Origin: Acidobacteriota bacterium | GTDB taxonomy: Bacteria > Acidobacteriota > Thermoanaerobaculia > Multivoradales > J023 | Reading direction: 5' to 3' | Length of the DNA: 64,000 nucleotides | Assembly (NCBI GenBank): GCA_029263315.1 | Contig: JAJCXR010000024.1 | Span: 124,526-188,525 of the forward strand | Shown here: one piece after another, positions 30,450-43,379 of the stretch | Position numbering within the stretch: the stretch's first letter is position 1 | How the letters are laid out: every line of letters starts with the position of its first letter | Position numbers and translations under genes: made by a program | The notes under the pieces: model-generated | What the model saw: the letters and a program-made list of their open reading frames with translations, nothing else | Databases searched by the model: none | Told to the model about the DNA's origin: nothing

Positions 30450-31547
30450 ATGTCAACCAAGACGTCAACTAAGACGATGTCAACCACGATGTCTGCTCAG
30501 CCATCTGCCCAAGACCGCCGCATCCTGGCGCTGTTGCTACATCTGCAGCGCTGGCCCTTCGACGCCATCACCGGCGACGACTTACGGCTCGACCACCGAA
30601 CCCTCGAGTCTCAGGCGCGGCAGGTCTTTCCCGAGTTGCCGCAGGATGCGTGGCCCTCCGACTGGCAAGGAGCTCTGCTGACGCTCTGCGAGCAAAACTG
30701 GTTGCACGGCCTGCCCGGTGACCCCGCGGCGACCTTTGGGCTGACTCCCGCCGGACGTGAGCTGGCACGGGGGTTCCACCGTGAGCTCATGGCAAAGGGC
30801 TTCGATGAGTTGCTGGTGGATGCCCTCGACAGCCCCGCCTACGCCTCCTTTTGTCGGCGATCCATGGGACTCGACATCGGGCATTTCAGCCCGGTGGACG
30901 CCATCCAGGTATCTTTGCTGGCCTCCATGCTGAAGGGCCTGGACCGATCGAAGCCGCCGGGCCGGCCGTTCCGTTGGCTGGACTTGGGCTGTGGCGCCGG
31001 AAACATGACGGCCTGGCTGGCCCGCCAACTCGGCACGGCGGTGGCCTATGGCGTCGACCTCGCGTCCGAGGCCATCGCCGTGGGACGTCGTCGGCACGCC
31101 GACCTCGGGCAACGGCTGCATCTTCATGTGGCCGATGTGCACGATCTGCGTGTTTTGCCCGCCGCCTCCTTCGACGCCTTGGTGGCGGTTGACGTGCTGG
31201 CGTTTGTCGATGAACCTGAAATCGCCTTGCGGCGTTGGCTCCGCCTGCTGGCCCCTGGGGGACGAGCCCTGGTCCTGGGTTCGTCGAGGGGCGGCACGCA
31301 GAAAGCGCGATTCGAGGTTGGGTTGCTCGGAAGATACACCCCTCCCCCACTGGTGGTCGATTTGACCTCCCTCGATCGACATCTGTGGCGCTCACAGCGG
31401 CGGATTCTGGCGGTCATGGGCAAGGACTTCGAGGGCGAAGGTCGGCTTCCCCTCTACCGCCTGCTGTGCCAAGAGGCCCGGCGGTGTGGCCGATGGGCCG
31501 AAGCCGGGTCCACTCGGCGCACCTTGACGGTACTGCGGACTGTATAA
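30450..31547 (+). CDS. Class I SAM-dependent methyltransferase with an N-terminal helical domain
   Basis: Motif I LDLGCGAGNMT. The N-terminus MSTKTSTKTMSTTMS is encoded by a short tandem repeat, so the true start may be a downstream ATG. Confidence 0.7.
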   Translation: MSTKTSTKTMSTTMSAQPSAQDRRILALLLHLQRWPFDAITGDDLRLDHRTLESQARQVFPELPQDAWPSDWQGALLTLCEQNWLHGLPGDPAATFGLTPAGRELARGFHRELMAKGFDELLVDALDSPAYASFCRRSMGLDIGHFSPVDAIQVSLLASMLKGLDRSKPPGRPFRWLDLGCGAGNMTAWLARQLGTAVAYGVDLASEAIAVGRRRHADLGQRLHLHVADVHDLRVLPAASFDALVAVDVLAFVDEPEIALRRWLRLLAPGGRALVLGSSRGGTQKARFEVGLLGRYTPPPLVVDLTSLDRHLWRSQRRILAVMGKDFEGEGRLPLYRLLCQEARRCGRWAEAGSTRRTLTVLRTV

Positions 31548-31558
31548 TCCACCACCTT

Positions 31559-33958
31559 ATGTTTCGACTCGATCGCTACATCTTTGCCGAGATCCTCGGC
31601 CCTCTCACCCTCGGATTCTTCGTCTACACCTCGATCCTGCTGATGCAGGCCCTCTTCAAAGCTGCGGAGCTGATTATCCGCAGCGGCGTCGATGTGGCGA
31701 CGGTGGGACGCTTGCTCCTGCTTTCCCTGCCTTGGATCGTCGTCATGACGATCCCCATGTCGTTCCTCTTTGGCATTCTCATCGCCGTCGGTCGATTGTC
31801 TTCGGACAGTGAGCTCATCGCTTTGCGCTCGAGCGGCGTCAGCCTGTTCTCCCTCTACCGTCCCATCTTGGTGCTGTCCTTGCTCCTGACAGGCCTCAAC
31901 ACCTACTTGATGGTCAAGGTGCTGCCGGAGGGAAACCATGCGCTGCAACAATTGCGCATCGACATCCTCACCCAGAGCATCACCGAAGAAGTGACGCCAC
32001 GTATTCCCCACACCAGTTGGCAGGACAAGATGCTCTACGTCTTCGAGACGCCCCCCGGCGAGCAACGTTGGCGGGGGTTGTTCCTGTCGGACGCGGTGCC
32101 GACGCGGGAGACGGAAGTCACCATCGCCGAATGGGGCCGCGCCGAACCGGACGGCGATCAGGTGGTGCTGTCCTTGGAGGGGGCCTACAGCCACGTCGTC
32201 GATCTGTATCGACCGGAGCAGTATCGGCTGGCTTACCATCGAGATCTGCTGGTGCGTCTGGCGAGCTTTTCGCGGCAGCGGGCCGGTGCCTCGGTCAAGC
32301 GAAGCTTGCGGGAGCTGTCGCTGGATCAGCTCTTCGAAAGGGCCGCCGACACCAACTATCCAGACTCGGTGCGCAACTTGGCCAAGGTGGAGATCCAGAA
32401 GAAGTTCAGCATTCCGGCGGCCTGCCTGGTGTTCGGCCTGCTCGGTCTGCCCTTGGGTTTCAGCAATTCCAGGGGCGGCCGCTCTTCCGGTTTTGCCATC
32501 TCCATCGGCGTCATCCTGGTCTACTACATCTTGCTCAATTCCGGCGAGGATATCGCCCGCGAAGGGACGGTGCCCGCCTGGCTCGCCGTTTGGTTTCCCA
32601 ACGTTCTCCTGCTGATGATCGGTCTTTTCCTCTTGGCGCGGCGCAATCGTGACAAGAGCCTGCTGCTGACCAATTTGGACCGTTGGATTCAAGATCGCCT
32701 CTGGGGGCGCATCCTGACCTTTCAGGCCCGCCGTGAGGAGAACCGCGCCAAACACAAGGCGCAGGCCCAGGCGGCACGGGCAGAGCGGCGGCGGCGGAAA
32801 CGACGCGAGGAGGATGGCTCCTCCACCGAAGGCCGGGTCCTCTTCAAGCTGCCGGATTTGCGTCTGCGTTTTCCCAACTCGATGGACCGCTACATCCTGC
32901 GGACTTTCCTTCGGGTCCTCCTGCTGGCGGTGCTCTCCGGCACCATGGTTTACTTGGTGGCGGACTTGACGGACAACTTCGACAAGATCCTGGAGAACGA
33001 AATCCCGCGGCATGTGATCTTCGACTATTACAAGTTCAAGTCATTGGCCATCGTCTACGAGATTTCGCCGATCATCGTCCTGGTGTCGACGTTGATCACC
33101 TTCGGCCTGCTGTCGCGGACCAATGAGATCATCGCCTGCAAGGCTCTCGGTATGAGCCTTTACCGCCTCTCCGTGCCGGTGATTCTGGCCGCCACCTTGA
33201 TCTCCGCAGTGGGCGGCCTATTGGAATCGGAGGTCTTGGCGGCGTCCAATGAGCGGGTGACGGAGCTCAAGGCGATCATCAAGGGGCAAGCCGTGCCGCG
33301 GGGTGGCGGCAGCGGGCACCGATGGCTTTACGGCAAGGACAATCGTCTCTACAACTTCGCCTTCTTCGATACCACGGAGCAAGAGCTGCACCGGCTGCAG
33401 ATCTTTCAGTTCGACAAAGACGTCAAATCCATCACCGGTCGCCTGATGGCGGATCGGGCGAAATATATGGAAGACGGCTGGTGGATGCTCTCCTCCGGCT
33501 GGACACGCTCCTTCGAGGGGACCGAGTCGACGGATTTCAGCAGCTTCACCGAGCCGAGAAAATATCGTTTGGAAGAAACCCCCGACTACTTCGGGGGCGC
33601 CCTGAGCCTGCCGGAGGAAATGAGCTACAACCAACTCCGCAGCTACATCGACGAGCTCCGGCAAAGTGGACAATCGGTGCCGGATCTCGAAGTCGCCCTG
33701 CACAACAAGATCGCTTATCCCGTGATCTCGTTGGTCATGGCTTTGGTGGCCCTGCCCTTTGCCTTCCGGCTGGGACGCCAGGGGGCCCTCTATGGCATTG
33801 GGCTGTCGCTGGTTCTCGGAGTGATTCTGCTGGTGGTCCTCGGGGTGTTCCGGGCCCTGGGTGAGAATGGGGTCTTGCCGCCGCTGATAGCGGTTTGGAG
33901 CCCCAGTTTGATTTTCACCGTCTTTTCGATGTATCTGTTTCTCGGGGTCCGGACCTAG
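31559..33958 (+). CDS. Fused LptF-LptG LPS-export permease (two YjgP/YjgQ domains in one 800-aa ORF)
   Basis: First half MFRLDRYIFAEILGPL... is the LptF/LptG permease family. A basic linker (RAERRRRKRREED) follows. The second half restarts with MDRYILRTFLRVLLLAV..., again YjgP/YjgQ. No stop codon lies between the halves. Confidence 0.75.
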   Translation: MFRLDRYIFAEILGPLTLGFFVYTSILLMQALFKAAELIIRSGVDVATVGRLLLLSLPWIVVMTIPMSFLFGILIAVGRLSSDSELIALRSSGVSLFSLYRPILVLSLLLTGLNTYLMVKVLPEGNHALQQLRIDILTQSITEEVTPRIPHTSWQDKMLYVFETPPGEQRWRGLFLSDAVPTRETEVTIAEWGRAEPDGDQVVLSLEGAYSHVVDLYRPEQYRLAYHRDLLVRLASFSRQRAGASVKRSLRELSLDQLFERAADTNYPDSVRNLAKVEIQKKFSIPAACLVFGLLGLPLGFSNSRGGRSSGFAISIGVILVYYILLNSGEDIAREGTVPAWLAVWFPNVLLLMIGLFLLARRNRDKSLLLTNLDRWIQDRLWGRILTFQARREENRAKHKAQAQAARAERRRRKRREEDGSSTEGRVLFKLPDLRLRFPNSMDRYILRTFLRVLLLAVLSGTMVYLVADLTDNFDKILENEIPRHVIFDYYKFKSLAIVYEISPIIVLVSTLITFGLLSRTNEIIACKALGMSLYRLSVPVILAATLISAVGGLLESEVLAASNERVTELKAIIKGQAVPRGGGSGHRWLYGKDNRLYNFAFFDTTEQELHRLQIFQFDKDVKSITGRLMADRAKYMEDGWWMLSSGWTRSFEGTESTDFSSFTEPRKYRLEETPDYFGGALSLPEEMSYNQLRSYIDELRQSGQSVPDLEVALHNKIAYPVISLVMALVALPFAFRLGRQGALYGIGLSLVLGVILLVVLGVFRALGENGVLPPLIAVWSPSLIFTVFSMYLFLGVRT

Positions 33959-33990: not shown

Positions 33991-34485
33991 TTATTGTCTT
34001 CCGTGGTCCTTGGCAATCGCTCCGCCGAGTCTGCGGTAAGACGCCTCCATACCGTCTTCCATTCCCGAAGCCAGCATGGCTTCACGGGTCTTCTCGTCGG
34101 GGAGTGTCATCCGCATGGTCATCAAGGTGCCGCCGTTTTTGGCCTCGAAGCGGGTTTCGATGTGGTTTTCCGGCGTCGGCCCTGGGAGATGCATGCGCTC
34201 AATATGAACGATCCGCGAGAACGGCTCGAGCTCGATGAATTCACCGGTTATATAGAACCCGCCACCCTTTCCATCCGACCATTCGTAACGAAATTTTCCG
34301 CCGGGAACAGCGTCATTGATGCACACCGGCATGGTCCATTTTTCCGGCCCAAGCATCCACTGCTGAATGAGATCCGGGTCCGTATGTGCACGGAAGACGG
34401 CCTCGGGTGAGGCGGCAAACTGACGGGTGATGACGATGTGCCGGTCACCCTCGATGGTCAGTTTGAGCTGCGTAGAGATGGTCAT
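33991..34485 (-). CDS. SRPBCC-superfamily protein (AHSA1/Aha1-like)
   Basis: 164-aa protein with an Aha1-like signature. Confidence 0.7.
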   Translation of the reverse strand: MTISTQLKLTIEGDRHIVITRQFAASPEAVFRAHTDPDLIQQWMLGPEKWTMPVCINDAVPGGKFRYEWSDGKGGGFYITGEFIELEPFSRIVHIERMHLPGPTPENHIETRFEAKNGGTLMTMRMTLPDEKTREAMLASGMEDGMEASYRRLGGAIAKDHGRQ

Positions 34486-34832
34486 GGTGGTGGTTCCTTA
34501 TGTGGTTCGCTTGGACCGACAGCCAAGAGCTCATCGAGCCGGTCATAGTTGGAAGACATGGCGTTCCGCAGCTCATTCAGCCATTGATCGATCGGAGCGA
34601 GCCCGTCCGCAGCAAGGGCACAGGGGCGGCGCGACCCGTCGACGCGGCGGTGGATCAACCCGGCATTTTCGAGCACCTTGAGATGCTTGGAAATAGCTGG
34701 CTGGCTCATTTCGAACGGTTCTGCGAGCTCCATCACTCCGAGCTCACCCGAGGCCAAGCGCGCTAGAAGGGCGCGTCGTGTCGGATCAGCGAGAGCAGTG
34801 AGAACAACGGTGAGCTGTTCTGCGGTTTTCAT
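34482..34832 (-). CDS. ArsR/SmtB-family metalloregulatory repressor
   Basis: LADPTRRALLARL...MSQPAISKHLKVLENAGLI winged HTH, with Cys in the C-terminal region. Confidence 0.85.
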   Translation of the reverse strand: MKTAEQLTVVLTALADPTRRALLARLASGELGVMELAEPFEMSQPAISKHLKVLENAGLIHRRVDGSRRPCALAADGLAPIDQWLNELRNAMSSNYDRLDELLAVGPSEPHKEPPP

Positions 34833-34840
34833 GCTCTCAA

Positions 34841-34860
34841 TATAACCGAGAGGTTATATT
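34841..34860. promoter_or_regulatory. Candidate ArsR operator: 8-bp inverted repeat with 4-bp spacer (ATATAACC-GAGA-GGTTATAT)
   Basis: Perfect dyad 9 bp upstream of the arsR-like start in an AT-rich spacer. Confidence 0.5.
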
Positions 34861-35140
34861 CTGTCAAAGTTATACATTAGGGCGACAAGACTCCCCTCCC
34901 CCAACCGTTTGGGAAGCGGACTGTGGATCGGTACTCAGCGAGGGCCGCCTTCCCCTCAAGATCGATTCGGCTTGAATTTGAGGAGCTCAAGTGTTCGTAC
35001 TTAGTTTCTTCTACGGCAAGCTCGGCCGAGCCGACTGGCGAGATGTTGATTGACTAGGGAAGACGGCAGGCTGCTTGATTCTGATCCTGGCCTCGATCAT
35101 TCACGCTTCCTCCCTTTCTGCACAAATCTGCTGAGTATGC

Positions 35141-35563
35141 TCAGAGGGCACCTCTTTCCGCAACCCTGAGCGCGTCGAGGATAGGGCACTCGCTGGTCGG
35201 TCCGGCGCCCCCCTGACACGTCTCTGTCAGACGGCCCAAAGCGTCTTCGATGCGGCGTAGCGACGCGATCTTTTCCCTTACGTCGCGGAGCCTATCTTCC
35301 GCTCGTTCCTTGACCTCGCTACAGGTCGCTGCCGGATCGACGCGCAGCGACAGCAGCTCACCGATCTCGTCAAGGGAGAAGCCAAGCTGCTGGGCCCTAT
35401 GGATGAATCGGATCCGTGGGATCGTGCTCGCCGGAAAAGCGCGATAGCCAGAAGCGCGACGTGGCGCCTGCGGGATCAAACCACGGCGCTCGTAGTAGCG
35501 GATGGCCTCCACCCGCATCTCGGTAGCCGCGGCTACCTCGCCTATCGACAAAGCCGTAGTCAT
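35141..35563 (-). CDS. merR: MerR-family Hg(II)-type metalloregulator
   Basis: MerR HTH (IGEVAAATEMRVEAIRYYERRGL). Three Cys at about positions 80, 118 and 127 (ATCSE...ETCQGG...SECP) match the MerR Hg-binding Cys spacing. Confidence 0.75.
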   Translation of the reverse strand: MTTALSIGEVAAATEMRVEAIRYYERRGLIPQAPRRASGYRAFPASTIPRIRFIHRAQQLGFSLDEIGELLSLRVDPAATCSEVKERAEDRLRDVREKIASLRRIEDALGRLTETCQGGAGPTSECPILDALRVAERGAL

Positions 35564-36576
35564 TCATTGCTCCCTTGAGTGTTCGCCCGATGGCCTTGGC
35601 CAGGCGCGAACTTCTGAATGCGATGGTTTCCGAAGTCCACCACGTAGACGTTACCATCGTTATCCACCGCGACATCGGTCGGCCGGTCAAGCTTGCCAAG
35701 TGCCGAACCCTCGGCGCCGATGATCGCCAGGTGCTCGCCCTCGGTCGTCAGTTTCCGGACTTGGTGGCTGTAGAAGTCAGCGACGAAGATGGCGCCGTCT
35801 GGACCTACGGCGACCGCCGTCGCGGTGCGGAACTTGCCTCGATCGCCATCGGTACCTGAGGAGGTCGAGCCATTCCACAAGCGTAGGAAGCTCCCCCCCT
35901 TGTGGAAAATCTGGACGCGATCATTGTAGGCGTCGGCAACAACCAAGCTCCCATCGCTGAGCAGGGCCACATCGGTGGGGTACTGAAACCGTCCCGGCTC
36001 GGATCCCGTTCGGCCGGTTTCTCCCAGCTGGCGGATCAACTCTCCTGCCGAGGTCATGACCTGGATCCGCTGGTTGTAGAAGTCCGCCACGTAGAGCTTC
36101 CCTTCGGCGTCGACATCGACCCCTGCCGGCGCGTCGAACTGGCCGGGTCCGGATCCAGGCATGCCCAGGATCTCTTGAGAGATCCCCGCCGGCGAGAAGA
36201 CCTGGATGCGGTCGTTTAGGTATTCCGCGACGTACAACCTGCCATCGCGGAATGCGAGATGCATCGGCCGCGCAAGTTCCCCTGCTGCGCTTCCTTCTTT
36301 GCCGAAGGCACGAACGAATCGGCCTGCGAGGTCGAATACCTGAATGCGGTGATTGCCCGCGTCGCTGACGTAGACCTCACCCTGCGCCACGGCGATCCCG
36401 ATCGGTTGGCGCAGGTCTCCAGGTCGAAACCCCTCCTGGCCCCAGGTCGAGACAAATCGGTAGCCGCCGTTCGGCAGCGGCAGCTCCCCCGCTCCTACCT
36501 CGCTGACGCCGGTGCTCGACACGCTAGCTGCGAGGCTGAGAGCGAACAGGTAGGTGGTACAGCGGCGCCACATCAC
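35560..36576 (-). CDS. Secreted NHL-repeat beta-propeller protein
   Basis: Signal peptide followed by six NHL-like repeats (YV.D..N.RIQVF). Confidence 0.8.
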   Translation of the reverse strand: MMWRRCTTYLFALSLAASVSSTGVSEVGAGELPLPNGGYRFVSTWGQEGFRPGDLRQPIGIAVAQGEVYVSDAGNHRIQVFDLAGRFVRAFGKEGSAAGELARPMHLAFRDGRLYVAEYLNDRIQVFSPAGISQEILGMPGSGPGQFDAPAGVDVDAEGKLYVADFYNQRIQVMTSAGELIRQLGETGRTGSEPGRFQYPTDVALLSDGSLVVADAYNDRVQIFHKGGSFLRLWNGSTSSGTDGDRGKFRTATAVAVGPDGAIFVADFYSHQVRKLTTEGEHLAIIGAEGSALGKLDRPTDVAVDNDGNVYVVDFGNHRIQKFAPGQGHRANTQGSNE

Positions 36577-37502
36577 CAGTTCACCCGCATGCTCAAGATG
36601 GCGGTGCCATCGGGTTCTAGGGCAGCGCCATGGAGCGCTCTTACAATTGGAATCTGCACTCCGGCTTCGACGATCAACCTCTTGCTGACGAGCTGAATGC
36701 CCGGTGCCAAGTAGGCGATGAAGCCGCCCGAGTCTGGATCAGCCAGGCCGCCGGCACGATTTCGGCCGGCCCACACCAGATTGCTCTCCAGGACGCCGTA
36801 GAGGAACCGGGGCAGCCCGGCCTTCAGGCGACGCGGCAGGAGCCGGTGTTGGTACGAGATGTCGAGCCGCGCCTCGTCGCCAAGCTCGAAAGCGTTGGCT
36901 TGGTCGTTGACTCGGTAGGCAATGGAGGTATCGAGCTGCCAGCCCAGAGTTTGCCAGGTGGCGACCGAACCGAAGGCGAGATCCCAGGAACCCGAGCCGA
37001 GCTGAAGCGGCGGTGGAAGCCCGCCCAGGCCATCGCGCCGGTCGTCCTCGCCGGTGGGCGCCTCGACGCCGAGGAACGGTGCCAGGCGAAAGGTTCGTCC
37101 CGGCCGGTCGCGACGAAACAGCGTATAGCGGCCCAACAAGGTGACGTCGCCCAGGCCAGAGACCTGTCGTCGCTTGCGACCGTTCGACGTCGTGAGAGCA
37201 AGCTGCTTGTCGAGGATCGGAAGAATGGCAAAGAGGGCCAGCTTGTCGGTGACACCGTAGACCCCAACCAGGGACAGAGCTTCGACCTCCAACTTTCGCT
37301 GCGCTGAAGTCGGGTCACCGGTCGACCGGAGGTACCTCGTCTGGATACGAACGATCCCTTCTCCTTCGGCGACCGGCAGGGCCGTGTTGAAGGTAATCGG
37401 TGCAGCAGCAACGTGCACGACCGCAAGACTTACACCGAAGCCCCAGACAGCGAAGACCGCCATTGGCAGAATTGCATTTCTCTGGCCAATTCGTTGCCTC
37501 AC
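36573..37502 (-). CDS. Outer-membrane beta-barrel of the 'transporter'/MetA-like family
   Basis: 309 aa with a signal peptide, alternating beta-strand pattern and a C-terminal aromatic residue (…RVNW). Confidence 0.55.
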   Translation of the reverse strand: MRQRIGQRNAILPMAVFAVWGFGVSLAVVHVAAAPITFNTALPVAEGEGIVRIQTRYLRSTGDPTSAQRKLEVEALSLVGVYGVTDKLALFAILPILDKQLALTTSNGRKRRQVSGLGDVTLLGRYTLFRRDRPGRTFRLAPFLGVEAPTGEDDRRDGLGGLPPPLQLGSGSWDLAFGSVATWQTLGWQLDTSIAYRVNDQANAFELGDEARLDISYQHRLLPRRLKAGLPRFLYGVLESNLVWAGRNRAGGLADPDSGGFIAYLAPGIQLVSKRLIVEAGVQIPIVRALHGAALEPDGTAILSMRVNW

Positions 37503-38053
37503 CTTCGCACCTCTTCAATGTGCTCGGGAGACAGCGCCGGACCAGCGTCTGACCATCGAATCTCTCCACGCAGGGTCACCGGTATGTCGCCTCGAAGAAA
37601 CTCGAGCAGACGCAGGGCGATCTCATCAGCAACATCGACCAACAACAGGCTTCCTTCGTCGTTCTCGAAGCGTAGCTGAAGGTCGCCTTCCTTTGGCCCG
37701 GCAACGACTCGGCCAGTGACCTCGATGTCCAAACTACCGGGGGTGAAGCCGGCCTTCTCGACAGCTCGTCGGACCTCTTGGACATCGATGGACTGGCCCT
37801 GTTCAGCGATGACTCGCGCTTGACCTGCCACGAGGTCGATTGTCACCTTCTCGACCGCGTCTACCTTCAAGAGGCGCTTTTCGATACCGTATCCGCAGAA
37901 CGGGCAGGCCATGCCGTCGACTGCAACCGTGGCCTTGATGACCTGGGCAGGGAGCGGACTGGCGAGCAACAGAATTAGTAGCAACGGTTTCCAAACAAGC
38001 CGCATGGCATCGCTCTCCTTCTGCGATTGGGAGCTTGGGCCCTTCAGCTTCAC
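37499..38053 (-). CDS. Secreted heavy-metal-associated (HMA) domain protein with C-terminal extension
   Basis: Signal peptide, then GMACPFCGYGIEKRL (MxCxxC metal-binding motif). 4-bp ATGA overlaps with both neighbours. Confidence 0.75.
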   Translation of the reverse strand: MKLKGPSSQSQKESDAMRLVWKPLLLILLLASPLPAQVIKATVAVDGMACPFCGYGIEKRLLKVDAVEKVTIDLVAGQARVIAEQGQSIDVQEVRRAVEKAGFTPGSLDIEVTGRVVAGPKEGDLQLRFENDEGSLLLVDVADEIALRLLEFLRGDIPVTLRGEIRWSDAGPALSPEHIEEVRR

Positions 38054-38322
38054 GCCTCCCCCTCCACGGATTGGCCGAGACCGACCTCGCGCAGCCGAGC
38101 GAGGTCCACACCGCCGCGGCAGCAGTCGGCGAGAACGCCGTCTATAACTACCGAGGGGGCTCTCGCTACGCCCTGAGCTCGAGCACGTTCCGCTACAGAG
38201 GCATCCCGAAGATCGGACACACTCACGTCACAGGAGGTGCACGCTAATTCACCTACCGCAGTGACGACCTCGTCGCACAATGGGCAACCTGCGCTGAAAA
38301 TCTCTATCGTTAGCTGACTCAT
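38050..38322 (-). CDS. Small thioredoxin-fold redox-active disulfide protein (CPxC), ars-operon type
   Basis: MSQLTIEIFSAGCPLCDEVV, about 90 aa, with AAAGGAG 8 nt upstream of the ATG. Confidence 0.65.
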   Translation of the reverse strand: MSQLTIEIFSAGCPLCDEVVTAVGELACTSCDVSVSDLRDASVAERARAQGVARAPSVVIDGVLADCCRGGVDLARLREVGLGQSVEGEA

Positions 38323-38411
38323 GGGTCGACTCCTTTCTTCCAAGTTGCAACAGAGGCACATCTTGGCATTCTTGTCGGAGAAGAAATGTGTACTGAGGCG
38401 GAACACGATCG

Positions 38412-38872
38412 TTACGCCAGCCAGGAGAGCCGCGGCGCGATGCCTCTCCCGGCATGCAGGAAGAACTTACAGCCTGAAGTCAACTTCAGAGTCAAGGGGT
38501 CCCCCAGAGAATGTTGTGTAGAGGGTCGCAAGCAGATTTGTATTGATTTGGGAGTACCAGGCTCAACCTCCCGATCAAGCCATAGCTGCGCCCGATCGAG
38601 CCTTAGTTGGCCTCCGACAGTCCTCCGACTCGTATCCGCAAAACAGCGGCGCAATGCTCGGCTCACGTAGACTAGGCTGATCAACACCGGTACATCGACC
38701 AGGGGTCCGACCGCTTTCGCAAAGGCGATCGGCGAGGCGATTCCAAAGATGCCGATGGCTATAGCGATCGCCAGCTTGAAGTTATTGCCAGAAGCGGCTC
38801 AACCCGCCGCTCAGCCCAAGGCGATGCCGGTCAGACTCCAAATCAGGAGCTTGCTGCGCAGCGACCCCGCGA
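38412..38872 (-). pseudogene. Remnant of an ACR3-family arsenite efflux pump; only the C-terminal 50-60 codons survive, interrupted by two in-frame TGA codons
   Basis: Minus-strand frame reads ...[55 protein letters not shown]..., matching the conserved ACR3 C-terminus (NF.LAIAVAI..FG..S..A.A.V.GPL.EVPV.L.LV). No upstream ACR3 body exists. Confidence 0.4.
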
Positions 38873-38995
38873 GATCTGACATGGGGTTTTCACAAGTCTT
38901 AGACCTCGATCTCATGACTCCAACAGAGAATCCTCACCGCTCCTATGGACCAGGAAGGGCCAGAATTCACGGTATTCGGAGCCTCGCACGACGAG

Positions 38996-40375
38996 TCACC
39001 GGGCTGCACGAGCTGCGCCCTTCACCATTTCGCTCAGCGTCGGATGGGCGTGAATCGACTTGCTGATTCGGTCGATTCTGCCGTTTCCGTGCATCGCAGC
39101 AACAGCCTCGTGCAGGAGATCATCACCGTGAGGTGCGAGAATGTGGAAGCCGAGGATTTGCCGGGATTCTCGATCTACAACCGCTTTGAGCAGTCCGCGT
39201 GGATCACCGATCGTTTTGGCTCGCGCGCCGTCCGCACGGACCGTGCCAACCGCCACGTCATGACCGCTCTCTCGAGCCTCGGCCTCGGTGAGACCGACTG
39301 CCGCCAGCGTCGGGTCGCTAAAGATCGCCCTCGGCACGACCCGGTAGTCGACTTCTTTCCCCAGGCCTTTGACGGCGTTCAAGGCAGCGAGGGGTCCGTC
39401 ATAGGTCGCCACGTGGGTGAACATCCAACCGCCCTTGACATCGCCGATGGCCCAGACATGCGGCTGGCTCGTCCGAAGCTGGCCGTCGACCGGAATAAAG
39501 CCCCTCGCGTCTATGTCGATACCGGCGGACCGTAGGTGGAGGCCGCCGGTGTTCCCGACCCGCCCGGCCGCAACCAGGACTTCTGCGGCACGGTACTCCT
39601 TCTCTGAGCCGTCAGTGCTACAGACGGCTATCTTCTGTCCGTTCTCGTCGCGTATCGACTGCACGGCGGCCCCGGTTCTGACGTTGATGCCCTCCTCTCG
39701 GAGGTAGTCCGCAAGGAGCTCGGAGAGCTGAGGATCCTCTCCGGGCGCCAAGCGGTCATTGCGGCCGAGGAGAGTGACCCTCGAGCCGAAGCGGGAATAC
39801 ATCTGAGCAAACTCGATTCCAACGTAGCCGCCTCCGATCACCAGGAGGCTCGACGGCACACGCCCTAAATGCAGAGCTGTATCGTTGTTCAAAGAGTCAA
39901 TAGCTTCCAGGCCCGAGATCGGAGGCACGACCCGGCGTGCCCCTGTGGCGATGATCGCCTTGGTGAAGCTGATTCGGCGATCGCCAGTGTCGATTTCGTG
40001 GGGACTGACGAATCTGGCCTCTCCTCGGACGAAATCGATCGCATCCCGTCGTTTGCTCAACGCGCCATGGATCGTCTTATGAATGCCGCTAACAATGGCG
40101 TCCTTGCGCGCCACGGCCTGATCCAGCCGAAAGCGCACGGCGCCATCGATCTCAACTCCGAGGTCGGTCGCCCGCCGGGCAACCAGGTGCATCACTTCGG
40201 CCGAGCGCAGCAAGGCCTTGGTAGGGACGCACCCCTCGTTGACTCAGGTGCCGCCGACCTCCGCGCGCTCGACGAGCGCAACCCGGGCTCCGAGGTTGGC
40301 CGCCATATGGGCGGCCGGCAGACCTCCCTGTCCAGCTCCGATCACCGCCAAGTCATAGTCATGTGATGGCATCAT
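38996..40375 (-). CDS. LpdA/GR/MerA-like flavoprotein disulfide reductase with an in-frame TGA replacing the first redox-active Cys
   Basis: From ATG 40375, preceded by GAGGGAG: MMPSHDYDLAVIGAGQGGLPAAHMAANLGARVALVERAEVGGT-TGA-VNEGCVPTKALLRSAEVMHL..., then about 415 aa of intact frame through the NAD(P) GxGxxG and the C-terminal HAHPTLSE dimerisation motif. The TGA is codon 44 at 40244-40246, where the canonical [13 protein letters not shown] has Cys. This is either a selenocysteine codon or a nonsense mutation. Confidence 0.6.
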
Positions 40376-40397
40376 GGTTCTCCCTCTACTTTGGTTT

Positions 40398-40427
40398 GTG
40401 TCAAGTTGTGTCAAGTTGTGTCAAGTC
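40398..40427. repeat. Three tandem copies of GTGTCAAGTY in the 5' region of the TGA-containing reductase gene
   Basis: gtgtcaagtt gtgtcaagtt gtgtcaagtc, 20-50 bp upstream of the ATG at 40375. Confidence 0.8.
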
Positions 40428-40461
40428 TCGCTCGAGAGCCGAGGTCCTGGGTGACGCCCGG

Positions 40462-40563
40462 CTATTCTTTCGAATCGCCGTGACGGTCACCTTCCAGCAC
40501 AGTGCCGGCCGAAAGGGCAGCAACAACCAGCAGGATCGAAGCATGAGTGAGCTTGGGATTCAT
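40462..40563 (-). CDS. Possible 33-aa secreted peptide between merA and the TGA-reductase gene
   Basis: MNPKLTHASILLVVAALSAGTVLEGDRHGDSKE, with a strong SD (AAGGAGAAGGGTCC-ATG). It is below the ORF-track length cut-off. Confidence 0.35.
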   Translation of the reverse strand: MNPKLTHASILLVVAALSAGTVLEGDRHGDSKE

Positions 40564-40617
40564 GGACCCTTCTCCTTCGGAGTGATGAGCGTGCCGACGA
40601 CGCTTCGTCGGCTAGGG

Positions 40618-42380
<1,763 letters not shown>

Positions 42381-42409
42381 CATCTCGTGTTCTCCTTGTC
42401 TCAGGTGGC

Positions 42410-42751
42410 CTACAACAGCCACGATGCGTAGTACGGAAACGCCATCAAGGCGACCGCGACGGTCGCTACGATCCACAGCACAATGCGGTGCCGCCGCCGG
42501 CTCTTGGGGACCGCGCAGGCTTCCCCCGGCTCGCACTCCACCGGCCTGTAGGCCTGATAGAAGGCGAAGCCTAGGAAGATGAGGGTCAGCCCTGCGAACC
42601 AGGGGCGAAGGGGCTCGAGCTTCGCTCCCAGGGCCGCCGACCCGACCCCGAGGACCGCCACAGCGACTGGCAGGATGCAGCACAGCGAAGCACCAAAAGC
42701 AGCGATCACGGCTCCGGCGTTGACAAACACGTTCTTCTTGGTTTCTTCCAT
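42410..42751 (-). CDS. merT: Mercuric ion transport protein MerT
   Basis: Three TM helices. TM1 has the Cys-Cys pair (GASLCCILPV). The cytoplasmic loop has the second Cys pair ECEPGEACAVP. The C-terminus VLWIVATVAVALMAFPYY is MerT-like. Confidence 0.75.
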   Translation of the reverse strand: MEETKKNVFVNAGAVIAAFGASLCCILPVAVAVLGVGSAALGAKLEPLRPWFAGLTLIFLGFAFYQAYRPVECEPGEACAVPKSRRRHRIVLWIVATVAVALMAFPYYASWLL

Positions 42752-42769
42752 CGGGTGCTCCCGTTCAAT

Positions 42770-43090
42770 TCAGCTCTGCTTGAGCAAGGTAGCGAGGACT
42801 TTGGTGACCTTCTTGAGCCGCTCGTCCGGGTCGCCTTCCATGCAGGTATTCATGCAGGAGTGCAGCTCGTGCTCCAGCAGCACAGCGGAGAAGCGATTGA
42901 GTGCCGCCTTGACCGCGGATACCTGCAGCAGGATTTCGTCGGCGCACCGCTCCTCCTCGAGCATCTGGCCGACGCTCCGAAGGTGCCCTTCGAGCCGTGC
43001 AAGCCTGTTGCGCAAAGCGCGTTTCGCAGCCTCGTCTAGGTATCCGAGACCGGCTGGATGGGAGGTCGAAAGATCGTTCTTCGAAATCAT
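42770..43090 (-). CDS. CsoR/RcnR/FrmR-family (DUF156) metal-sensing transcriptional repressor
   Basis: 106 aa with ARLEGHLRSVGQMLEEERCADEILLQVSAVKAALN and the C-H-C ligand pattern (C..H..C). AAGGAGAA SD. Sits 18 bp upstream of merT. Confidence 0.8.
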   Translation of the reverse strand: MISKNDLSTSHPAGLGYLDEAAKRALRNRLARLEGHLRSVGQMLEEERCADEILLQVSAVKAALNRFSAVLLEHELHSCMNTCMEGDPDERLKKVTKVLATLLKQS

Positions 43091-43118
43091 GAAAAGGTTC
43101 TCCTTCTTTGGACTGGTT

Positions 43119-43137
43119 TATCCCCCCCGGGGGGATA
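43119..43137. promoter_or_regulatory. Candidate CsoR-type operator: G/C-tract palindrome TATCCCCCCC-GGGGGGATA
   Basis: Near-perfect dyad 29 bp upstream of the csoR-like start codon. CsoR-family operators are typically C-tract/G-tract inverted repeats. Confidence 0.45.
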
Positions 43138-43379
43138 CCTCAATCTAACACTACGCAGCAGCCTCGAGCTCGGTTCATTCCTACTTGCCGAGTGGGGAAA
43201 ACTGCGTCTTGGTGCTGATCGATCGATCGAGCTTGGAGGGAACCGACTGAGGGGGGGCCAGGGCAACCGGTGTCACCTCGTCTACCTGAGTCAGGGATCT
43301 TGACGAGACCGGAGTTTCCGGGTTGCTGTTCTTCTCAATCTCGAGACGGGGAATCGCCCACGAGCCGTCCGGGCGCCGA

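Follow-up and report, generated by a model that had tools for sequence, protein, structure and literature searches.

What kind of mercury-resistance system carries a CsoR-family regulator gene at one end, a merR gene at the other and, between them, two flavoprotein reductases, one of which has a TGA codon within its reading frame? This question was raised by an island at positions 35141-43137 of a 64-kb stretch of DNA from an Acidobacteriota bacterium (contig JAJCXR010000024.1, positions 124,526 to 188,525), which was analysed at its full length and is referred to below as the window. Open reading frame (ORF) listing and hidden Markov model (HMM) searches, together with tblastn for a remnant of an ACR3 gene, located the entire gene set on the minus strand, as eleven co-directional genes in the places given by the original prediction, which had been made from the nucleotide sequence alone. 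All features described below lie on the minus strand unless another strand is given.

The island is a variant of known mer systems, and its chief content is a widespread, mer-associated family of predicted selenoproteins without an entry in the inventories that were checked. It probably serves in the detoxification of mercury or soft metals and consists of three modules, every one of which has a control element to itself: a csoR-merT-merP-merA cassette (module A), the reductase with the in-frame TGA codon (SecRed), and a trx3-HMA2-outer-membrane channel-NHL-merR module (module C). This description is built on the identities of the genes, the module boundaries, conserved operators, and a conserved in-frame TGA codon with its hairpin; we infer which metals act as inducers, on which substrate the selenoenzyme acts and in which direction transport runs. 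SecRed, which the original prediction had mentioned in passing as 'TGA-reductase', is ranked here as the most unusual feature of the island.

The in-frame TGA codon of SecRed

SecRed (38996-40375; 459 amino acids; start codon placed at 40375 in correction of the earlier gene call) contained Pyr_redox_2 and Pyr_redox_dim domains, characteristic of a class-I flavoprotein disulfide reductase, here predicted to be of a selenocysteine (Sec) type. Its in-frame TGA (40244-40246; codon U44) replaces the first (interchange) Cys of the CxxxxC motif, and the active site reads GGT-U44-VNEG-C49, followed by VPTK. A homologue scan with one genome per species returned 79 loci, which are denoted here by L numbers. 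TGA was found at the U44 codon in 44 of the 44 loci with at least 49% identity (45 of 45 counting the window), whereas homologues with at most 45% identity had TGC or TGT (Cys) at this position. The TGA-bearing clade originated from at least five phyla (Gemmatimonadota, Chloroflexota, Myxococcota, the latter as a metagenome-assembled genome of the Myxococcales, Calditrichota, and Neomarinimicrobiota), and the family comprised more than 120 protein clusters at 66% identity or more, and 45 species-representative genomes. The best 120 database homologues were all 396-415 amino acids long, with gene calls beginning just past the U44 codon, and showed 66-78% identity apart from the window's own protein (P0001, 100%). 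In all 45 clade members, a 43-amino-acid FAD-binding N-terminus (YDYDLLVIGAGQGGLPAAHMAANLGA...) was conserved, in frame, upstream of the TGA.

These observations bear on an explanation in which the TGA is a genuine stop codon and the reductase an inactive pseudogene or a split gene. Consistent with that explanation, gene callers split SecRed, the neighbouring ACR3 pseudogene shows regional decay, and Sec machinery was not seen in the window. It is contradicted by the occurrence of an identical TGA in homologues from several phyla at 49-78% identity, by its location exactly at the catalytic Cys codon, where outgroups have Cys, by strong purifying selection on both halves of the gene and by a conserved hairpin downstream. 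In view of the truncated gene calls, the invariant TGA and the conserved in-frame N-terminus, the stop-codon explanation is effectively refuted and retains a very small probability. Genome-wide reassignment of TGA was excluded as well, because TGA serves as a normal stop codon in the neighbouring csoR and merP genes.

A candidate bacterial Sec insertion sequence (SECIS) stem-loop was located at 40185-40234 and starts 10 nt after the UGA. RNAalifold placed an 8-bp helix at the same distance downstream of the UGA, and this lower helix was paired in 97% of cells (45 sequences), as compared to 31-41% in slid controls. The 50-nt stem-loop of the window had a folding energy of -23.2 kcal/mol (z = -2.9; 1/200 shuffles), and in a subgroup of approximately 50% identity an apical hairpin, GACCUU-GUU-AAGGUC, was maintained via the nearly invariant codons TTG TTA AGG. 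An Rfam scan of the 33-46 kb region yielded no model that applies to this stem-loop.

Additional in-frame TGA codons were found close to SecRed in other genomes. Neighbouring HMA genes carried TGA at the metal-binding Cys codon (GMT-U-xx-C) in L002, L003, L008, and L020, the HMA2 homologue of L021 (minus strand) reads GMT-U-PL-U, and L034 contained a peroxiredoxin-like gene with the motif W-U-PF-C. The TGA-bearing MerP/HMA genes beside SecRed are at L002:1840, L003:353, L008:3342, and L020:7. Because these HMA and peroxiredoxin-like genes carry in-frame TGA codons, these genomes appear to decode UGA as Sec, and whole mer operons in Gemmatimonadota appear, from their sequences, to be 'selenised'. 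A scan of the window for a second selenoprotein by in-frame TGA gave implausible candidates only; the filter of the same scan on GC content at third codon positions (GC3) missed SecRed.

Two results detract from a role of the TGA as a Sec codon. Covariation in the helix consisted mostly of one-sided, wobble-compatible single changes within coding sequence, with an apical part that differs among subgroups. Furthermore, neither tRNA-Sec (ARAGORN, window and 79 loci) nor a selA, selB, or selD gene was found in the 64-kb window or the fetched loci, and Sec decoding in the source genome is for that reason deduced from the homologues. With these results taken into account, SecRed is probably a selenoprotein.

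A prokaryotic selenoprotein inventory of 2026 with 119 families (PMC13188914) contained no class-I flavoprotein reductase with a UxxxxC motif, and its sole flavoprotein entries are of the CoA-disulfide-reductase type (UGxP) and a type III sulfide:quinone reductase. A SecRed-like family was also absent from a 2022 review, from the deep-Sep and BSepDB papers and from NCBIfam release 20, and literature searches found no Sec-containing MerA-like or dihydrolipoamide-dehydrogenase-like enzyme.

Relatives, neighbours, and possible function of SecRed

When U44 was replaced by Cys, SecRed scored just above the cut-off of the dihydrolipoamide dehydrogenase model (414 versus 409 bits). The nearest solved structure by sequence was a MerA (5x1y, E = 9e-87), followed by dihydrolipoamide dehydrogenases, and identity to the MerA of the window was 32%. 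In SecRed of the window, His aligns with both signature tyrosines of MerA (equivalents of 264 and 605); Tyr was seen by eye at the 264-equivalent position of several homologues (P0017, P0036, P0060, P0034), and the A1 consensus also has Tyr. In a neighbour-joining tree without bootstrap values, the Sec sequences formed one clade, apart from CC-tailed bacterial and archaeal MerA. Four features weigh against assignment of SecRed to MerA. The U-to-C version of SecRed reached 412.6 bits with TIGR02053, under the MerA cut-off of 454.45 bits. SecRed has no C-terminal Cys pair and ends in ...HPTLSEMVKGAARAAR, and a CC tail occurred in no family member examined. The His-Glu dyad of disulfide reductases is retained (HAHPTLSE in SecRed; HxHPTLSE), and the Sec clade groups, in the same tree, beside Cys-type non-MerA reductases without a CC tail. 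Judged by these sequence characteristics, SecRed is not a MerA orthologue.

The closest Cys-type relatives of SecRed, with 44-45% identity, an HVHPTLSE motif and no CC tail, occurred in L045 and L052 (Gemmatimonadota/Longimicrobiales). In L045, merR with a Tn501-like operator is followed by merT and the Cys-type reductase, and L052 has barrel, HMA2, and NHL genes and then the Cys-type reductase. Since these Cys types sit in mer-type surroundings, non-MerA reductases in mer contexts are not confined to the Sec clade.

Clustering of the 45 SecRed loci identified MerR near SecRed in 15 loci, MerB in 11 (median start approximately 850 nt upstream of the TGA, and directly adjacent in several), CcdA-like proteins in 10, CopZ_Nterm_CC in 9, MerT in at least 8, TlpA/ResA-like proteins in 7-8, MerE-like proteins in 7, and CsoR-like proteins in 4. 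When tblastn results were included, approximately 35 of the 45 loci had at least one mer-type neighbour (merR, merT, merP, merB, or merE). CC-tailed MerA was encoded within 7 kb only in the window and six other loci of the 45. Operons in which merR comes first and that hold SecRed were headed by Tn501-like operators, TTGAC-[TC]CCGTAC-N4-GTACGG. In L086, the closest relative of the island, the order is csoR-merT-merP-(205-aa ORF)-merA-SecRed, and SecRed begins 35 nt past merA.

Two further ORFs were noted in these neighbourhoods. A protein of approximately 205-270 amino acids is encoded inside mer operons in L021 (9169-9981) and L086 (4918-5535), between merP (or an ArsR-type gene) and the reductases; by eye, the two proteins resemble each other and seem to have an N-terminal hydrophobic stretch, with the motif FHIKTGL.QDDSQICVGFN. 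A DsrE-like identity was considered for this protein, for which no significant Pfam match was obtained. In L029 (11250-11590), an ORF of 112 amino acids that directly follows SecRed, with an overlap at its end, terminates in a MerA tail (...EKDVAKLSCCAG) and copies the C-terminus of a full MerA approximately 6 kb upstream. It could be a recombination scar or an attempted fusion of SecRed to a MerA tail.

In the mechanism that we propose, SecRed would be an NAD(P)H-dependent enzyme in which Sec replaces the outer, substrate-attacking Cys of the flavin-adjacent pair (U44-x4-C49), with the UGA recoded by the stem-loop 10 nt downstream. Its selenolate would take Hg(II) from thiol ligands (MerB, MerT, cellular thiols), thus doing the job of the C-terminal Cys pair of MerA that SecRed is missing, and Hg(II) bound by U44/C49 would be reduced through FAD. 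Such direct capture and reduction of Hg(II) is favoured because SecRed is often the sole reductase downstream of MerT, MerP, and MerB, often directly after merB. We tentatively suggest that the UxxxxC flavoprotein may be a selenium-dependent mercuric reductase, or an obligatory partner of MerB/MerT, that stands in for MerA in Gemmatimonadota, many Chloroflexota, Neomarinimicrobiota, and other groups, in many cases alongside a Sec-containing MerP ('seleno-mer' operons). In addition to the retained dyad, the missing Cys pair and the grouping with non-MerA reductases, it is a difficulty for this proposal that the stability of an Hg-Se bond may not permit efficient turnover, and that canonical MerA co-occurs with SecRed in the window, in L086 and in six other loci. 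From the latter co-occurrence, a non-redundant role of SecRed is argued.

In the main alternative, which is possible though less likely, SecRed is instead a thioredoxin-reductase-like enzyme that does not reduce Hg(II). Electrons would then pass from NAD(P)H to trx3 and on to a CcdA/DsbD-type relay and periplasmic TlpA/ResA-like proteins, which would keep the Cys/Sec ligands of MerP, HMA2, and MerT reduced under mercury stress. The retained dyad, the absence of the MerA tail and the grouping with non-MerA reductases are all compatible with such a role, as are the CcdA-like and TlpA/ResA-like neighbours counted above and a trx3 gene that comes after SecRed both in the window and in L012. The co-occurrence with MerA also fits, since it suggests distinct roles. 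However, many loci (e.g. L002, L012, L022, L030) have the order merR-merT-merP(-merB)-SecRed, with no MerA, CcdA, TlpA, or trx3 detected, and import of Hg(II) without a reductase would harm the cell. Moreover, merB lies immediately upstream of SecRed in several loci, which places SecRed in the slot that is normally MerA's, and trx3 of the window is part of module C, behind a separate predicted promoter.

Modules A and C and their control elements

Module A starts with the CsoR-like regulator gene (42770-43090; 106 amino acids), whose product belongs to the CsoR/RcnR family by its PF02583 score (71.4 bits versus a gathering score of 22.8). After an 18-nt gap it is followed by merT, encoding the inner-membrane Hg(II) transporter (42410-42751; 113 amino acids; PF02411, 94 bits), merP, encoding a periplasmic HMA protein with a signal peptide and a GMTCGGC motif (42027-42383; PF00403, 66 bits), and merA, encoding a MerA core without an NmerA domain (40618-42030; 470 amino acids). 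MerA exceeded the equivalog cut-offs of TIGR02053 (554.1 versus 454.45 bits) and NF010311 (755 versus 600 bits), and its signature residues were complete (GGTCVNVGC, C-terminal LSCCAG, Tyr in RRTKY, and Tyr in FPYLTM). These correspond to the criteria for MerA of Christakis et al. (PMC8261052), namely a CxxxxC redox Cys pair, a C-terminal vicinal Cys pair and equivalents of Tyr264 and Tyr605 (Phe in archaea at 605).

The original prediction that a CsoR-family regulator with a C/G-tract palindrome heads merTPA was borne out by comparison with related loci. In seven of seven such loci that were opened (L081, L082/83, L084/85, L086, L087), csoR was followed by merT within approximately 20 nt in otherwise unrelated surroundings, with merP and merA next wherever the contig permits. 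CsoR-like homologues numbered 343, with 65-92% identity among those listed. The operator-like palindrome TATCCCCCCGGGGGGGATA (43119-43137, strand-neutral; arms TATCCCCCC-G-GGGGGGATA) lies upstream of csoR, within an extended dyad that was found in a dyad search, and the pattern (T)ATCCCCCC-N1-2-GGGGGAT(A) was kept upstream of csoR in the six related loci whose upstream sequence was read, between dissimilar flanks. In the window, the palindrome would fill the 16-nt spacer between a possible -35 hexamer TTGAGG (43138-43143) and a possible -10 hexamer ATAAAC (43116-43121), in which case a bound repressor would occlude the csoR promoter. The CsoR-like gene thus has a predicted G/C-tract palindromic operator that overlaps its own promoter. 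An Rfam match to 'whalefall-1' at 43097-43138, from the scan mentioned above, was rejected; it scored 18.8 bits, below the gathering score (37), lies over the csoR palindrome and is judged to be a chance match produced by the G/C hairpin. CsoR-like genes of Chloroflexota had no C/G-tract palindrome upstream in L023, L025, L026, L036, and L038. Together, the sequences indicate that the CsoR-headed merTPA operon is a conserved architecture and a self-contained cassette; literature searches found no CsoR-regulated mer operon.

The candidate metal ligands C49, H74, C79, and C83 of the CsoR-like protein were conserved in L081-L085, and H77 varied. The spacing between His and Cys is 5 residues, with C83 as an extra conserved Cys, as opposed to a spacing of 4 in canonical CsoR, and the best NCBIfam match was the copper sensor RicR. 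The CsoR-family protein would bind the C6/G6 palindrome in the promoter spacer and repress merTPA until it is released by the binding of a thiophilic metal (most likely Hg(II)) to C49/H74/C79/C83, upon which module A would provide Hg(II) uptake and reduction. The cassette would be closed by a hairpin located a few nt past the merA stop codon (40593-40612), with an 8-bp GC-rich stem (GCCGACGA-AGCG-TCGTCGGC), a folding energy of -18.2 kcal/mol (z = -2.4; 4/200 shuffles fold as well) and no U-tract. This hairpin could be a terminator or an mRNA end-stabiliser.

Module C comprises trx3 (38050-38322; 90 amino acids; PF13192, Thioredoxin_3-like, 26 bits), encoding a small cytoplasmic thioredoxin-like protein; HMA2 (37499-38053; PF00403, 43 bits; GMACPFC motif), encoding a secreted HMA metallochaperone; an outer-membrane channel gene of the PF13557/COG4313 family (36573-37502); a gene for a secreted six-bladed NHL beta-propeller (35560-36576; 338 amino acids); and, as its last gene, merR (35141-35563), encoding a heavy-metal regulator of the MerR family with MerR HTH and MerR-DNA-bind domains. 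Trx3 has six Cys, in CPLC, CxSC, and CC motifs, and homologues in L088 (between merR and HMA2) and L012. HMA2 has an extra C-terminal domain of approximately 80 amino acids and a likely ATG start at 38005; homologues occurred in L021, L052, L087, and L088, and a distant HMA gene in L086. HMM searches of the barrel and the NHL protein, which the original prediction had proposed, gave 47.4 bits for PF13557 (versus 22) and 166 bits for NHL repeats. For the barrel (1038 homologues; no PDB sequence match), an AlphaFold2 model with 12 predicted strands had a mean predicted local distance difference test (pLDDT) score of 84.9 and a predicted template-modelling (pTM) score of 0.79. Its best PDB folds were FapF (template-modelling (TM) score 0.69) and the COG4313 channel 4rl8 (TM 0.64), and family HMM and modelled 12-stranded barrel both support assignment to the COG4313/PF13557 channels. 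PDB matches of the NHL protein were generic propellers (TRIM71, designed 'Pizza' proteins), which are uninformative on function.

A MerR-type promoter/operator was predicted ahead of trx3, at 38464-38495, where it falls inside the ACR3 remnant's read-through: TTGACT-CTGAAG-TTGA-CTTCAG-GCTG-TAAGTT, with the -35 hexamer TTGACT at 38490-38495, the dyad at 38474-38489 and the -10 hexamer TAAGTT at 38464-38469. Its spacer is 20 bp long, and spacers of 19-20 bp are a hallmark of MerR-activated promoters. Equivalents were found in L087 before HMA2-barrel-NHL (TTGACT-CTGAAG-TACA-CTTCAG-AGTT-TAGGCT) and in L086 before barrel-NHL (TTGACC-CTGAAG-CTAA-CTTCAG-ACTG-TAGTGT). The island thus has a candidate long-spacer promoter with a dyad operator for MerR, with a dyad unlike that of Tn501. 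A search for a Tn501-type operator (TTGACTCCGTAC-N4-GTACGGA) found none in the window at up to three mismatches, and the actual dyad surfaced only via the comparison with L087 and L086.

The original prediction had regarded the outer-membrane barrel and NHL genes as unusual members of a mer system, and both indeed recurred with merR or mer genes in L052, L086, L087, and L088, as did the barrel gene in L021. L088 (Acidobacteriota) has the module by itself, in an order that begins with merR (merR-trx3-HMA2-barrel-NHL), in L087 its homologue diverges from csoR-merTP, and in the Gemmatimonadota loci L021 and L052 barrel-HMA genes (plus NHL in L052) lie beside merR or a Cys-type reductase. The gene next after the barrel in L086, L087, and L088 is an NHL homologue, and L052 has one downstream of its barrel; in L086, module C is adjoined by DUF4198 and HupE/UreJ metal-transport genes. 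As far as gene order can tell, the genes for the barrel, the NHL protein and the secreted HMA protein recur together in association with merR/mer genes and are not chance neighbours. The proposed long-spacer promoter would drive module C upon activation by MerR, whose gene, as the last of the module, would be autoregulated, and module C would constitute an envelope metal route made up of the 12-stranded COG4313/FapF-like channel, the periplasmic HMA chaperone and the propeller. A MerR-controlled channel/HMA/NHL module suggests active management of metal passage across the outer membrane, a step left out of classical mer models.

The MerR of module C has Cys at C81, C116, and C126, with spacings of 35 and 10 residues, and those of Tn501 MerR are 35 and 9. 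Its inducer could be Hg, Pb, or Cd. Mercury as the metal of the island is called into question by a TIGR02051 score of 129 bits, which is under the cut-off of 150.85 bits and close to the scores of the ZntR (125) and CueR (123) models, and by the Cu(I)-type C-H-C pattern that the CsoR-like protein keeps. These two results, the RicR match, the scores of the HMA proteins on CopZ models and the DUF4198 and HupE/UreJ genes of L086 would fit an island, or at least a CsoR cassette and module C, that mainly serves copper/silver homeostasis and whose 'mer' names reflect family resemblance only. Such a copper/silver function is nevertheless unlikely. MerA passes its equivalog cut-off and lacks none of the Hg-specific signatures (the C-terminal Cys pair is present as well), MerT belongs to the mercury-type transporters, and the three Cys of MerR are arranged as in Hg, Pb, and Cd sensors, unlike the two-Cys pattern of CueR. 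In addition, no copper-exporting P-type ATPase or multicopper oxidase is encoded within the island, and related SecRed loci contain merB and Tn501-type mer operators.

The three units would answer the same stress, with the selenoenzyme acting on mercury-bound or mercury-damaged thiols. The original prediction had placed all eleven genes in a single transcription unit with merR as tail gene and had based this on 4-bp ATGA overlaps. Five 4-bp overlaps were confirmed, of which two (merP/merA and NHL/merR) read ATGA and three (trx3/HMA2, HMA2/barrel, and barrel/NHL) read GTGA; the single unit was not upheld. One operon from the csoR promoter under control of CsoR, with merR as a co-transcribed tail, would agree with the co-directionality of all genes, with these overlaps and with the location of SecRed directly after merA within the csoR operon of L086. 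Promoter and terminator scans also lend it weight at the expense of three modules: no U-tract terminator was predicted on the minus strand, and no sigma-70 promoter was found, inside the island. Against one operon are gaps of 241 nt (merA-SecRed) and 673 nt (SecRed-trx3), the second with a pseudogene, the conserved MerR-type promoter upstream of trx3, the hairpin 3' of merA, and the separate or divergent arrangement of modules A and C in L081-L085, L087, and L088, of which L088 has the module on its own. We therefore regard a single operon as improbable, while read-through from the csoR promoter is possible. The sequence points to independent promoters that split the accessory genes from merTPA, the very arrangement that had been named as incompatible with the original prediction.

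The stretches around SecRed contain several smaller features. Between merA and SecRed, an ORF of 33 amino acids (40462-40563) with an RBS-like (Shine-Dalgarno-like) sequence, GGAGAAGGG, is doubtful; it had no Pfam match, tblastn over L001-L080 (L081-L088 left out) matched the identical contig L001 only, and the ORF is considered unsupported. Sequence reading and a repeat search of the window identified three tandem copies of TTGACACAA(C/A) at 40395-40424. These perfect to near-perfect copies of TTGACACAAC, which cluster nowhere else in the window, stop 19 nt short of the SecRed start codon, and each of them includes a consensus -35 hexamer. A promoter function of TTGACACAAC was rejected, as no acceptable -10 hexamer lies at 16-20 bp with room left for a Shine-Dalgarno sequence; the triple repeat is possibly a regulator binding site.

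The ACR3 remnant between SecRed and trx3 (38640-38915), already recognised in the original prediction, proved real: tblastn matched it to the C-terminus of annotated ACR3 arsenite transporters with 58-73% identity in 63 plasmid records. No Pfam match and no meaningful PDB sequence match was obtained for this fragment. Instead of a full-length, ten-helix ACR3, approximately 45 C-terminal codons (38640-38780) are left, and possibly approximately 25 N-terminal codons in a scrap at 38811-38915 whose resemblance was seen by eye only. The remnant is an internally deleted pseudogene. Direct repeats of 19 nt (CCCGATCAAGCCATAGCTG and CCCGATCGAGCCTTAGTTG, plus strand), 21 nt apart, are located at 38570-38609, approximately 75-145 nt upstream of the MerR-type promoter.

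Because it is flanked by housekeeping genes, the island is considered to be chromosomal. On one side are radA and dnaB, and on the other an arsR-SRPBCC pair, an LptF/G-like ORF (by eye) and, at a greater distance, genes for RpoN, PtsI, PriA, and RecJ. Among homologues with a name, those nearest to the CsoR-like and barrel proteins were from Thermoanaerobaculia/Acidobacteriota. The arsR-family regulator gene (34482-34832, minus strand) overlaps an AHSA1/SRPBCC gene (33991-34485, minus strand) by 4 bp. A sigma-70 promoter close to consensus, the single one in the region (TTGACA-17-TATATT, 34839-34867), lies ahead of this pair, outside the island, and the pair may be a leftover of an ars locus that once included the ACR3 pseudogene. 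The ORF of 907 amino acids at 31235-33958 (plus strand) appeared by eye to consist of two fused LptF/LptG-type permease halves.

Comparison with known systems

Relative to the classical mer operons (Tn501/Tn21 merR-o/p-merTPAD; Bacillus RC607 merR-first), the island shares MerT, MerP, and the canonical MerA core, as well as a MerR-family regulator and a predicted promoter whose long spacer contains a dyad and whose hexamers are TTGACT and TAAG(G/T)T. However, its merTPA genes follow a CsoR-family gene and palindrome rather than a merR operator, and its MerR-type promoter instead precedes trx3, the genes for the secreted HMA protein, the outer-membrane channel and the NHL propeller, and merR itself. 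The dyad reads CTGAAG-N4-CTTCAG as opposed to TCCGTAC-N4-GTACGGA, MerA is without NmerA domain, and a second reductase, predicted to contain Sec, is added.

With the CsoR/RcnR family (CsoR of M. tuberculosis and B. subtilis; RcnR and FrmR of E. coli), the regulator of module A shares the PF02583 fold and has a similar Cys...His...Cys arrangement of candidate ligands. Operators in this family overlap the promoter and have a G/C tract between AT-rich inverted repeats, and the palindrome of the island is similar. In contrast to the characterized members, the island gene precedes merTPA rather than copZA, ctpV, or rcnA, and its product has a fourth ligand candidate, C83, one helical turn past C79, and a His offset by one residue. 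Besides MerR and the ArsR-type regulators, a conserved merTPA cassette headed by csoR would give mer operons a third mode of regulation.

The barrel protein resembles the COG4313/PF13557 channels (Pput2725, PDB 4rl8) and FapF in its predicted 12-stranded barrel, in TM scores of 0.64-0.69 and in its Pfam match. It differs from them in that its gene shares a predicted MerR-controlled operon with genes for a periplasmic chaperone of HMA type and for an NHL propeller; to our knowledge, no metal-related role has been demonstrated for this channel family.

SecRed has the full-length Pyr_redox_2 and dimerisation domains and the His-Glu dyad of class-I flavoprotein disulfide reductases (MerA, dihydrolipoamide dehydrogenase, glutathione reductase, and RclA/Har-type 'FAD-containing oxidoreductases'). 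It is set apart from these by the predicted Sec as the first Cys of CxxxxC, by the absence of the MerA Cys tail, by a His at the Tyr605 position of MerA and by a context of mer genes rather than 2-oxoacid dehydrogenase genes. Among class-I pyridine-nucleotide disulfide oxidoreductases, the thioredoxin reductase of mammals has the same fold, is likewise a selenoprotein and uses a selenenylsulfide. Its Sec is located in a C-terminal GCUG extension, with CVNVGC by the flavin, whereas SecRed would have Sec within the flavin-adjacent CxxxxC and has no C-terminal redox tail. If the assignment holds, SecRed would be without precedent among flavoprotein enzymes of the disulfide-reductase type in having selenium in the redox centre next to the flavin.

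The family is large and sits within mercury operons, and annotation systematically misrepresents its members as truncated. 'Seleno-mer' operons, if real, would explain genomes that have merB yet no recognisable merA, and merA-based surveys and truncating gene callers would then miss a large share of the environmental Hg(II)-reducing capacity. Should SecRed reduce Hg(II), the way of counting mercury-cycling potential in soils, sediments, and the deep ocean would change, and selenium availability would be linked to mercury detoxification.

Mercury-related prokaryotic selenoproteins that are already known include a MerT-like protein, an HMA 'metal-binding protein' with UxxU, the MerB-like SaoL, and HgcA/HgcB (Table 1 of PMC13188914; NCBIfam NF045683, NF041115). 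What the predicted selenoenzyme of the island has in common with these proteins is the use of Sec for a metal-binding or redox Cys, and the GMT-U-xx-C and GMT-U-xx-U forms of HMA proteins adjoin SecRed in L002, L003, L008, and L021 and are present in L020 as well.

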